64,000 nt of DNA from the IMG/VR virus record IMGVR_UViG_3300021319_000137, positions 21,677 through 85,676 of that record; one strand, written 5' to 3'. Source of the stretch: a virus (taxonomy: Duplodnaviria > Caudoviricetes). Made by a program: the position numbers and the translations under genes. Numbering within the stretch: position 1 is the first letter of the stretch; every line of letters starts with the position of its first letter. Below, piece after piece: positions 3,355 through 13,556 of the stretch. The notes under the pieces are model-generated. The model was not told the origin of the DNA and did not search any database. It saw only the letters and a list, made by a program, of their open reading frames with translations.

Positions 3355-4539
3355 CTATTTCTTTTTTATATATTTCTTTATTGTTTCTGGATTGTCGGAG
3401 ATTGAGTGTAGTACATATTCTCCCCAGTCCCATTCCCAGACAATTATGCACTGTTCTTCTCCCTTGACCGTAGTAGAGAAAATATGGCTTTGCACAACTC
3501 TATCCCTACGTTTGTGTGGCGGCAATGTAGCAGGGCCTAGGTACTCACTCTCTTCAAGCACTTCGTTAATTCTTAACAATAATTTGTTTTTCTCTTGATA
3601 GTGTTTGTTTGGTTGATTTGTCCACTCCGAGATAGATGCCCTCGAAATATTAATAGGATGAGGGAAATGTGATGTTGTAATTGAAGTTCCTTGTAGTGGT
3701 TTAGCGAGCTTTCTTGTTTGTTTGGCATCGGCATTAGCCAAAACCCTAACTATACGACAAGCGGCACATAGTTCATTCTCAGGAACGAATGCCAGGTTGA
3801 CCTTACCCTGGGCGATGTCGCAGTCCCGGCAGCGGCTGATGGTGTAGGGATTGTAGTCCGGGAACGTCTTGCCTTCCTTGCCCGAGTTGAAGCGGAAGAT
3901 GCCGCGCGTGTCCTTCTGCAGGGCTTCCTCGCCCCTGGCACGCGCCTCTTCAGGATCTGTCACCGGGTACTTTGACTTGCGGACCTGGGCCACTGTGCAG
4001 CGGCAGTTCCAGCCATTGGGCGGGTAGTAAGTCTCCCAGAACGGGTCAGAGGGTGGCAGCGTCACCCCATCGAGGGCGGCGTGCTCAGGCCTTACCTTTT
4101 CATCATGCTGAGTGCGGTACTGCAGGTTGTAGCGGTCACCGTCGGCCTCGATCTGCTCCCACTTGGCCGCCATGTCTGCCGAAGCCTGGCAGAAGTTGTA
4201 CTCGGCCCGCAGGTAGTTTTTATTGTAGGTGCTATCGATGGCTTGAACGTCATTCAAAAAGCGTTCAAAGGGCTTTCTCTCGCCATTCTCGTCGATGAGT
4301 GAGGGAAAGGCCTCGTTCAACTCATGGAAGGCCTTAAAGCCCGAGAATATGAAGTTGGAACGCTCCAGCCGGTGTCGCATAGCATCAGACATCGATACCT
4401 GCTGCATAGAGTGGTTCAGCGCGTCGGCATGTGTGCCGATGAAGTCAGTGACCTCGGGTTCCTGGATGACCTGGATGTCGAGCATAGCGCCCTCCTGGCG
4501 GTAGAGCGCGTGCATCATTCCCTCGAACGCCTTGCCCAC
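3355..4539 (-). CDS. Phage Mu gpF-like (MuF) minor head protein with C-terminal extension (putative nuclease toxin); frame is open upstream to the portal stop region (~4662)
   Basis: LQYRTQHDEKVRPEHAALDG...YPPNGWNCRC MuF signature; AT-rich C-terminal ~130 aa. Confidence 0.88.
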   Translation of the reverse strand: MGKAFEGMMHALYRQEGAMLDIQVIQEPEVTDFIGTHADALNHSMQQVSMSDAMRHRLERSNFIFSGFKAFHELNEAFPSLIDENGERKPFERFLNDVQAIDSTYNKNYLRAEYNFCQASADMAAKWEQIEADGDRYNLQYRTQHDEKVRPEHAALDGVTLPPSDPFWETYYPPNGWNCRCTVAQVRKSKYPVTDPEEARARGEEALQKDTRGIFRFNSGKEGKTFPDYNPYTISRCRDCDIAQGKVNLAFVPENELCAACRIVRVLANADAKQTRKLAKPLQGTSITTSHFPHPINISRASISEWTNQPNKHYQEKNKLLLRINEVLEESEYLGPATLPPHKRRDRVVQSHIFSTTVKGEEQCIIVWEWDWGEYVLHSISDNPETIKKYIKKK

Positions 4540-4633: not shown

Positions 4634-4671
4634 AGCCCCGCATAGTCGGCGGGGCTCAGTCGAAAAAAGGG
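4634..4671 (-). promoter_or_regulatory. Putative -1 programmed ribosomal frameshift signal (portal to MuF)
   Basis: Minus strand C_CCU_UUU and U_UUU_UUC heptamers (4671-4662), 5-nt spacer, 8-bp GC hairpin agccccgc/gcggggct (4656-4634); the -1 frame is the MuF frame. Confidence 0.75.
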
Positions 4672-12241: not shown

Positions 12242-12259
12242 CATTAAAATCAAAGTATT

Positions 12260-12802
12260 ATGCCTAACATTTCATGGGGTAAACCCGAAATCTACTTTGG
12301 TGCTCAAGGCAAGACCGTCGGAGCAAACACCTTTGACTTTGAAAAGATTTCCACTCCTGCAGAGGATAGTACCCAACTGACCGGTCAACAGGGCGAGAAG
12401 GTTGAGGCTAAAATCGAGGGTGGTGCAGCCGAGGATACGCAATACAAGGATCCCACACTTGAGCTGGTGATGAAAGTGCGTATGGCTAAAGAGGATAGCG
12501 GCTCTCTGCGACGATTGCCTAGTGTGTTGTACAAGTCAGGAAGCACCTCGGAGTACACCCAAGACAAGGTGGCCGTGTGCCTGATTCCGAAGAATAATGC
12601 TACCCCAGGCTTTTTCTGTGCATCTTGTTCGGTGAGCATTATAGAGACGTACACGGCAGCAGACGGCGCTTTCTGGGAGATTACGTTGTCTATCAACGTA
12701 CCCACGTCCGGTAGTGCTATCCAATGGGGGCAGTACTATGCTACCGAAGGCACGTCCACCAATGCCGGAAAGTTCAAGATTACATCTGGCGTGGCAGCGT
12801 AA
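12260..12802 (+). CDS. Major tail (tube) protein
   Basis: 180 aa; ISWGKPEIYFG, TPAEDSTQLT; upstream of chaperone and tape measure. Confidence 0.7.
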   Translation: MPNISWGKPEIYFGAQGKTVGANTFDFEKISTPAEDSTQLTGQQGEKVEAKIEGGAAEDTQYKDPTLELVMKVRMAKEDSGSLRRLPSVLYKSGSTSEYTQDKVAVCLIPKNNATPGFFCASCSVSIIETYTAADGAFWEITLSINVPTSGSAIQWGQYYATEGTSTNAGKFKITSGVAA

Positions 12803-12828
12803 AGCGACACGTTGTGTAACTATTATTC

Positions 12829-12870
12829 GCGGCAGCGGGTATGCTAATGCTGCTCGCTGCCGCTTGATTT
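12829..12870 (+). terminator. Intrinsic terminator-like hairpin after the tail tube gene
   Basis: gcggcagcgggt / gctcgctgccgc followed by ttgattt. Confidence 0.55.
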
Positions 12871-12875
12871 AAGCA

Positions 12876-13556
12876 ATGGACACAAGAGGTATTGACATAT
12901 TGTTGGAACGTCGCAACGAGATTGAGGTGGCTGGTCGTCGATTCACGCTGTACCCACCGTCGCTGGGCGTTACGATGATGGTGAAGGGCGGTCTTGACGT
13001 GCTGGGTCTTGATCTGGTGGGCGATCCAGTTGTTTCAGTGATCGCAGCTGCAGAGCGTGACCGGCTGCAGTGCTGCCGCCTGGTCGCGTTGTGGTCGTGT
13101 GCTGATCGTGACGAGGCGATGGATGCCGGATTGATTGAGGAACGTGCTGCATACCTGGATGGTCATGTAGAAACGGATGAGCTTTCCACACTGCTTATAG
13201 AGTTGCTGTCGAGCACTCATGTGGACGATTTCCTGCAGTCCAGCGGTATTGTCAAGGAAGTGGAGCGGCTGCGCAAGGTGAGTGCATACAAGAAGAATGA
13301 GACGCCGACTTTTGGGGGCAAGACAATCTTCGGCCAGCTGATAGACGCCGCCTTGCAGCGGTATGGCTGGACCTACGAGTATCTGGTGTGGGGCATATCG
13401 TATGCGGCACTGACAGTGCTGATGGCTGACAAGGTGACGCAGGTGATCCTGAGCGAAGAGGAACGCAAGCGTGTGCCGTTGCATCTGCTTGATGGGGATG
13501 TCATCAGTGGTGATGATCCAAGGAACGCACAACGTATAGTTGAAATGTTTAGTTAA
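12876..13556 (+). CDS. Tail assembly chaperone-like protein
   Basis: Located between tail tube and tape measure; FGGKTIFGQLID...YGWTYEYLVWGI. Confidence 0.65.
   Translation: MDTRGIDILLERRNEIEVAGRRFTLYPPSLGVTMMVKGGLDVLGLDLVGDPVVSVIAAAERDRLQCCRLVALWSCADRDEAMDAGLIEERAAYLDGHVETDELSTLLIELLSSTHVDDFLQSSGIVKEVERLRKVSAYKKNETPTFGGKTIFGQLIDAALQRYGWTYEYLVWGISYAALTVLMADKVTQVILSEEERKRVPLHLLDGDVISGDDPRNAQRIVEMFS

Follow-up and report, generated by a model that had tools for sequence, protein, structure and literature searches.

The 64,000-nucleotide stretch of phage DNA analysed here (the window) is a Mu-like prophage of gut or rumen Bacteroidales, in which a recoded fusion of the portal protein to the MuF protein is very probably made by programmed −1 ribosomal frameshifting. 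The anatomy of a frameshift site is present at the end of the portal gene and is conserved among relatives, its hairpin covaries, selection acts on a start-less −1 frame from the slip site onwards, and single-ORF portal–MuF fusions occur naturally. Frameshifts have been published in tail chaperones, capsid proteins and tail proteins. Our literature search found no report of a frameshift from portal to MuF and, as far as that search goes, this canonical −1 frameshift cassette lies at a gene junction for which none was previously described.

The portal–MuF junction in the window

The portal gene, identified in the ORF list, lies on the minus strand (5981–4656, with its TGA stop at 4658–4656) and encodes a Mu-type protein of 441 amino acids, the frame of which we call the zero frame. 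This protein matches Pfam Portal_Mu (PF06074) over the whole profile (positions 1–336 of 336; E = 8.6e-77; 259 bits against a cutoff of 23.9, thus passing the gathering score) and is assigned to PHROG 113 (portal). The 3′ end of the gene reads CGC CCT TTT TTC GAC TGA, exactly as in the original prediction, which had named two overlapping slippery heptamers here. Both are present: U_UUU_UUC (T_TTT_TTC in the DNA; 4668–4662), which consists of a T and the portal codons TTT TTC, and C_CCU_UUU (C_CCT_TTT; 4671–4665). The second is not conserved in relatives; we regard U_UUU_UUC as the conserved site because the CCC of C_CCT_TTT is found in only 42 of 111 distinct junctions. We propose that the shift takes place on U_UUU_UUC at 4668–4662, where tRNA-Phe would occupy both ribosomal sites, P and A.

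Five nucleotides (GACUG) separate this heptamer from a putative stimulatory hairpin at 4656–4634 (minus strand; 5′ arm AGCCCCGC at 4656–4649, loop CGACUAU at 4648–4642, 3′ arm GCGGGGCU at 4641–4634), the first base of which is also the last base of the portal stop. The perfect 8-bp GC helix and its 7-nt loop had been predicted at this spacing and were recovered as such: RNAfold gives the 23-nt hairpin −15.5 kcal/mol, and the MFE fold of the 91-nt context contains the 8-bp hairpin. The combined pattern T6C-N6-GCCCC-N11-GGGGC occurs once in the 64-kb window and in none of 100 shuffles. We found no Rfam family match at the junction, and a terminator and promoter scan returned neither there. We rejected a terminator or attenuator reading of the hairpin, given that scan and that no U-tract follows the hairpin on either strand.

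The MuF ORF is directly downstream of the portal gene and overlaps its end, in the −1 frame relative to the portal (4662–3355, minus strand; 435 codons plus the stop). The open stretch of the −1 frame runs from 4719 to 3355, and its translation across the junction is ...CAPFFRLSPADYAGLHQRY... and ...PFFRLSPADYAGLHQRY.... As predicted, this frame has no ATG, GTG or TTG before position 4539. Its N-terminal segment (RLSPADYAGLHQRY..., 4662–4519) contains no ATG and a single NTG, the non-conserved GTG at 4539; the first ATG follows at 4518. The tryptic peptide(s) LSPADYAGLHQR of the window's MuF frame would come from coding sequence ahead of any start codon. Pfam places Phage_Mu_F (PF04233) at about 4254–3991 (E = 1e-16; 62 bits against a cutoff of 29.6) and LPD3 (PF18798) in the C-terminal part at about 3717–3451 (E = 5.3e-14), and the frame is assigned to PHROG 220, 324 and 35074.

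A shift at the heptamer would join portal residues 1–440 to the 435 residues of MuF, giving a predicted product of 875 amino acids (5981–3358; junction ...ATVRPFF/RLSPADY...) beside the 441-aa portal. The original prediction had given the same pair of products, and the comparative data described below support it. Both halves of the predicted fusion align with the 852-aa single-ORF portal–MuF protein of a Porphyromonas gingivalis phage (E = 7e-38 and 4e-20).

Upstream in the operon are genes for a DNA-binding, TerS-like protein (8868–8212), the large terminase (8209–6653) and a gp36-type head–tail adaptor (6411–5992), all on the minus strand (PHROG 4151, 38 and 195); a match to Pfam Phage_Mu_Gp36 supports the adaptor assignment. 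The gene order in the window matches that of Hankyphage-type and P. gingivalis Mu-like phages. As an internal positive control, we looked for a frameshift of the lambda-type G/GT tail chaperone and saw none at 12248–13556. A GC-rich inverted repeat (cggcagcgg ... ccgctgccg; 12820–12870, plus strand) lies between the tail-region ORFs 12248–12802 and 12873–13556.

The original prediction also labelled MuF a toxin. The C-terminal domain in the window is LPD3 (PF18798), which is not a recognised toxin by the criterion of Jamet et al. 2017, whereas toxin-type domains do occur in relatives, in which the C-termini include weak CdiA_C-like matches, a PBECR2 nuclease, a Gln_amidase papain-fold toxin and an ADP-ribosyltransferase (ART). 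The domain that follows MuF is polymorphic among the close relatives L001–L160, L162, L163 and P0013, and these polymorphic C-termini resemble the published MuF polymorphic toxins.

Conservation of the cassette among relatives

Relatives were gathered through the portal protein alone, and the sample is therefore not conditioned on the signal. It consists of 80 IMG/VR loci (portal identity, 67–100%) and 80 further loci from GTDB species genomes, with Bacteroidales hosts that include Prevotellaceae, Muribaculaceae, Bacteroidaceae, Parabacteroides, Paraprevotella clara YIT 11840, Segatella copri HDD05, Mediterranea, Odoribacter and Lentimicrobiaceae. A complete junction was available for 153 loci, which yielded 118 distinct 260-nt junctions. 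T_TTT_TTC, one codon, the stop and an intact hairpin occur together in 107 of these; four have the heptamer with an altered hairpin, and seven have a second architecture in which the heptamer keeps its codon phase and lies some 45 nt farther upstream. The heptamer occupies the window's position in 111 of the 118 junctions, with TGA as the portal stop in 83 and TAA in 28, and T_TTT_TTC has the same X_XXY_YYZ phase relative to the zero frame in all 118. The 30 nt that precede the T-run cannot be aligned between clades. The exact cassette pattern is found in at least 105 IMG/VR contigs. Alignment of relatives had been named at the outset as the way to check the prediction: the relatives keep the heptamer, their hairpins covary and the −1 register holds. 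These comparative data strongly support a programmed −1 frameshift.

Conservation at the protein level begins at the heptamer. From FF onwards, the motif F F R L S P x D Y x G L H x R Y is kept with little or no change in its named residues across the 107 junctions, and outside the stem these residues are encoded by varying synonymous codons (Leu by CTG, CTA, TTA or TTG; Arg by CGC, CGT, CGA, AGA, CGG or AGG; Tyr, His and Asp by two each). Such synonymous variation with the residue fixed is a signature of purifying selection on the protein. The eight codons before FF show no residue conservation in the −1 frame and contain stops, 12 at position −5 and 9 at position −3 among the same junctions, and in relatives a stop in the −1 frame can lie as little as 16 nt ahead of the portal stop. 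The per-codon table thus describes a start-less −1 ORF with protein-level selection from the shift site, a pattern indicating that translation in the −1 frame begins precisely at the slip site.

No start codon is conserved in the MuF frame, the first NTG of which is scattered from −1 to +164 nt among relatives. We considered two candidate starts that the original prediction had offered as its own alternative and upheld neither. The CTG that overlaps the portal stop serves only as a Leu codon (CTG in 82, CTA in 19, TTA in 9 and TTG in 1 of 111 junctions, so that 29 have no CTG), and GTG 4539 is not conserved among the junctions. Gene callers tend to start MuF at a conserved Met-Met about 47 codons into the frame, and PHROG 23416 and 19194 align from residue 35–53. 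We do not take Met-Met to be the natural N terminus because, in an AlphaFold model built from 50 sequences, it is inside a long, confident helix (residues 21–54) that runs through it; if translation started internally at Met-Met, the result could be a free MuF with a shortened N terminus. Confidence in the MuF model is only moderate over its first 30 residues (pLDDT, 52–65), and a Foldseek search of the modelled N-terminal 331 residues against the PDB gave no matches at E ≤ 0.001. More than 12 loci have an in-frame insertion of about 190 amino acids after the first ~40 residues of MuF, resulting in −1 ORFs of 615–698 codons; the insertion, seen for example in L002 (4440–5020), L029, L057, L059, L063 and L081, has no Pfam matches.

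The median energy of the hairpin is −14.7 kcal/mol. Across 38 distinct sequences, 99.3% of cells in the 8-pair helix are paired and pairs 7 and 8 covary (GC/UA/AU and CG/AU/GC/UG); the observed covariation score was reached in 0 of 500 shuffles, and sliding the 3′ arm by 1–3 columns reduced pairing to 30–55%. The hairpin combines a 5-nt spacer, within the 5–9 nt range of stimulatory structures, with two covarying pairs. Seven stem variants occur among the 107 junctions, with the inner pairs TC/GA (34), AG/CT (23), GA/TC (20), AC/GT (18), GC/GC (8), GT/GC (3) and AA/TT (1). These changes alter the encoded residues (A/S/D/T/N/E at one position and A/L/E/S/V at the other), and the stem-arm codons Ser AGC, Pro CCC and Gly GGG appear without a synonymous alternative in 107 of 107 junctions.

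We rejected a protein-level cause for the GCCCC/GGGGC arms, which occur in three coding phases (giving S-P...G-L, A-P...D-G-A and A-P...G-G) and the inner pairs of which covary at the cost of residue changes. Because the arms encode different residues in different phases, it is the RNA element that is conserved, and on this comparative evidence the hairpin is an RNA-level constraint. In L151 (4290–4360), the heptamer and the arms GCCCCAC/GTGGGGC are both kept, the arms enclosing a loop of about 27 nt that codes for seven inserted residues; the stem is preserved across this insertion.

Other junction architectures and rival explanations

Two other arrangements carry the same cassette. Class B includes L025, L098, L141–L159, Bacteroides phage BKO1-TP4 and Hankyphage p00, with a portal identity of only 30% for BKO1-TP4 and Hankyphage p00. 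In this class, T_TTT_TTC is in the portal frame about 45 nt before the portal stop and is followed, after a 6-nt spacer, by a GCCCCG/CGGGGC hairpin; the −1 frame (FFRxSPxxRRGSFR...) continues into MuF. The annotated MuF ATG of Hankyphage, which overlaps the portal stop, is CTG in most other class B members.

Class C consists of three P. gingivalis phages (L162:3751–3790, L164 and L165) and five metagenomic relatives (L167–L171), with portal identities of 51–57%. The same heptamer, a 6-nt spacer and a GC hairpin are located here inside a single portal–MuF ORF of 852–955 amino acids. MuF is reached in the zero frame, and a stop ends the −1 frame after 14–31 codons, such that a shift would make the short portal, an inverted arrangement as in dnaX tau/gamma. 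All three architectures are thus predicted to produce a portal of ~440 amino acids and a portal–MuF protein of ~850–950 amino acids from one mRNA, and differ in which of the two requires the shift.

Natural fusions and natural separations both exist. We found 29 single-ORF portal–MuF proteins of 788–977 amino acids, and PHROG 35074 covers both the portal and the MuF halves. Together with the portal–MuF gene fusions published for Microbacterium phages (PMC7302621), these proteins bear out the earlier statement that gene-level fusions occur in some phages. Conversely, Flavobacterium phage lotta8-2 has separate genes and an ATG-initiated MuF. The hairpin has been lost from L036 (4255–4350), L039 and L148, which have a 26-aa insertion after the slip site and an ATG directly ahead of the motif (M-RLGRDEYSGLH). 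It follows that the motif is the true N-terminal part of MuF. This lineage without the stimulator has gained its own MuF start, in what looks like a switch to independent initiation. MuF can therefore work as a separate protein, as lotta8-2, these three loci and the Hankyphage ATG indicate.

Two further junctions differ in their slippery sequence. A distant single-ORF portal–MuF gene (L174:1805–1850) has another cassette in the same linker, comprising G_GGA_AAG and, 5 nt later, a perfect hairpin of 12 bp (−22.7 kcal/mol), and its −1 frame closes after 3 codons. A Logan contig (L172:1709–1745) has T7 in place of T6, which brings FF-RLSP into frame, so that portal and MuF are fused constitutively at the predicted junction; the T7 could be a real variant or a homopolymer error.

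An RNA polymerase that added one U on the T6 run would generate U7 mRNAs encoding the same fusion, with no shift of the ribosome. Such transcriptional slippage accords with the fact that a one-base insertion in the T-run gives exactly the MuF frame, with the in-frame FFRLSP junction of the T7 contig L172 and with the 7-T run that some class A junctions have through a C-to-T change. However, T6 is short for productive polymerase slippage, known cases of which involve runs of about 8–9 or more. In three junction architectures, moreover, the T-run is always in X_XXY_YYZ phase and always followed by C, and the covarying hairpin at a fixed 5–6 nt downstream, which ribosomal frameshifting needs, would be superfluous for a polymerase; we consider slippage of this kind quite improbable. 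The junction might also be an artefact or a product of decay, either a homopolymer sequencing error, to which such runs are prone, or a pseudogenised portal–MuF fusion gene, for which the in-frame fusions in relatives could be a precedent. Yet independent assemblies, among them complete isolate genomes (for example, Segatella copri HDD05 and Paraprevotella clara YIT 11840), share the same T6 and frame relation in 107 distinct junctions, and no fewer than 105 IMG/VR contigs have the exact pattern. With this many independent assemblies the explanation is effectively refuted, and we assign it almost no probability.

A third possibility is that MuF is made only as a separate protein, by reinitiation or from a non-canonical start near the portal stop or at Met-Met, and that the role of the U-run and hairpin is to couple translation or stabilise the mRNA, with no fusion being made. 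ATG-initiated MuF genes do exist in relatives, gene callers start homologues at internal ATGs (PHROG 23416 and 19194), and starts in Bacteroidales are hard to judge because these bacteria do not rely on Shine–Dalgarno sites. Against this, all three frames of the window lack an ATG, GTG or TTG within ~15 nt of the stop, and the Leu codon over the stop switches between CTG, CTA, TTA and TTG. Protein-level conservation starts exactly at the FF codons and extends over 45 codons ahead of Met-Met, and insertions keep the frame from RLSP onward. The cassette is also kept where the zero frame itself enters MuF and reinitiation is unneeded. Exclusive production of a separate MuF is, in our judgement, improbable, and programmed −1 frameshifting remains our preferred reading.

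Proposed mechanism and relation to known systems

A ribosome translating the portal mRNA would arrive at U_UUU_UUC with tRNA-Phe on UUU in the P site and on UUC in the A site, while the 8-bp GC hairpin, 5 nt downstream, would be at the mRNA entrance and resist unwinding. In a fraction of passages, both tRNA-Phe would re-pair one base back, on UUU UUU. Unshifted ribosomes would read GAC and then the UGA stop, releasing the 441-aa portal, whereas shifted ribosomes would read CGA CUG AGC CCC as the first of 435 further codons and make the 875-aa portal–MuF protein (...RPFF-RLSPADY...). The portal C terminus is generally taken to face the capsid interior, so the fusion would put MuF and its variable C-terminal domain inside the head; in the window, MuF and LPD3 would be attached there to some of the twelve portal subunits. 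That the ribosome itself shifts is our inference, and the same applies to how efficiently it does so, to the stoichiometry and to what becomes of the fusion, which may be retained, cleaved or ejected. Besides the capacity of MuF to work as a separate protein, it counts against the mechanism that U_UUU_UUC differs from the classic high-efficiency bacterial heptamer X_XXA_AAG and that, to our knowledge, nothing is known about frameshifting in Bacteroidales.

The original prediction went further, proposing that the frameshift loads an injected effector at a substoichiometric level. This is plausible by analogy, because one to two copies of gp7 are present per SPP1 capsid (PMC5576092). The fusion ratio need not be low, given that the zero frame makes the fusion in class C, and a cargo attached covalently would have to be cleaved off before it could be injected or ejected. 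Mass spectrometry of Hankyphage capsids recovered 3 peptides of MuF and 20 of the portal (PMC12135933 S6 Table); because small proteins were also present in the 85–250 kDa fraction, these fractions of the gel do not tell a fusion apart from free MuF, and the table, while compatible with the fusion, does not discriminate.

A broader and more tentative possibility, which we put forward with less confidence than the frameshift itself, is that the portal–MuF junction in Mu-like phages of Bacteroidota acts as a recoding device that sets a ratio, and that these phages have retained it through three or more rearrangements. The shift would lead to the fusion with the stop one codon past the site in the first and 14 codons later in the second; in the third, the zero frame would lead to the fusion and the shift to the short portal. 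A free portal and a portal–MuF protein with a swappable effector might then both be needed in one ring.

If frameshifting occurs as proposed, current annotation is wrong at this junction in prophages of Prevotellaceae, Muribaculaceae, Bacteroidaceae, Parabacteroides and Odoribacter and in the ubiquitous Hankyphage: MuF genes are called from arbitrary internal starts, and a ~100-kDa portal–MuF product is absent from protein sets. The junction would join tail chaperones and capsid extensions among the conserved targets of programmed frameshifting in phages, as a new member of that set, and would offer a concrete mechanism by which a defined share of portal subunits acquires MuF and a polymorphic, often nuclease- or toxin-like domain. 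Should the ratio-setting reading also be correct, it would represent a previously unrecognised way to load or position internal or ejected cargo at the DNA exit channel in very abundant gut phages, Hankyphage included. Recruitment of the MuF family to the portal vertex and its exit with the DNA become testable, as cultured lysogens and an inducible Hankyphage system exist.

The cassette recalls E. coli dnaX tau/gamma, in which −1 frameshifting involves A_AAA_AAG and a hairpin 6 nt downstream. A heptamer and a GC-rich hairpin at 5–6 nt are common to both. Class C (the P. gingivalis phages and L167–L171) would share the dnaX logic as well, with the long form in the zero frame and a truncated form from the −1 shift, whereas in the window the logic is reversed, with the shift giving the long form, and the cassette has no upstream Shine–Dalgarno-like stimulator.

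Gene-level fusions have the same domains in the same order in one polypeptide, as in Microbacterium phages of clusters EA3/EA5/EA8 and EB (PMC7302621), P. gingivalis phage011a (BK068092) and our 29 proteins, and their C-terminal nuclease or toxin domain is often variable (PBECR2, CdiA_C-like or ART). In the window the fusion needs recoding; in a gene fused in one frame, by contrast, every subunit is fused unless a frameshift truncates some. SPP1 gp7, of the MuF family, and the MuF polymorphic toxins (Jamet et al. 2017, PMC5576092) are likewise encoded directly after the portal and have polymorphic C-termini. They differ in that gp7 is bound non-covalently to the portal gp6 and has its own start (PMC5576092), and in that the LPD3 domain of the window is not on the toxin list.

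Extension of some subunits of a head protein at the C terminus by −1 slippage has precedents in T7 10A/10B and in phiEco32 and SU10, in which the major head protein is fused to an Ig-like domain at GGGAAAG and, for SU10, both forms were detected by mass spectrometry (PMC4281155). The added domain in those phages is an outside decoration on the capsid protein, whereas here it would be an internal head protein on the portal. The lambda-type tail chaperone G/GT, as presented from Levin et al. 1993 and Xu, Hendrix and Duda 2004 in PMC7302621 and PMC7911831, is similar in its −1 shift at an X_XXY_YYZ sequence near the end of an upstream structural gene, its start-less downstream ORF, its short and C-terminally extended products at a fixed ratio and the conserved position of the arrangement across very divergent phages. 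The cassette described here differs from G/GT in that it joins the portal and MuF pair of the head module, has a strong covarying hairpin at fixed spacing and would add, as the extension, a whole ~435-aa protein with its own enzymatic or effector domain.
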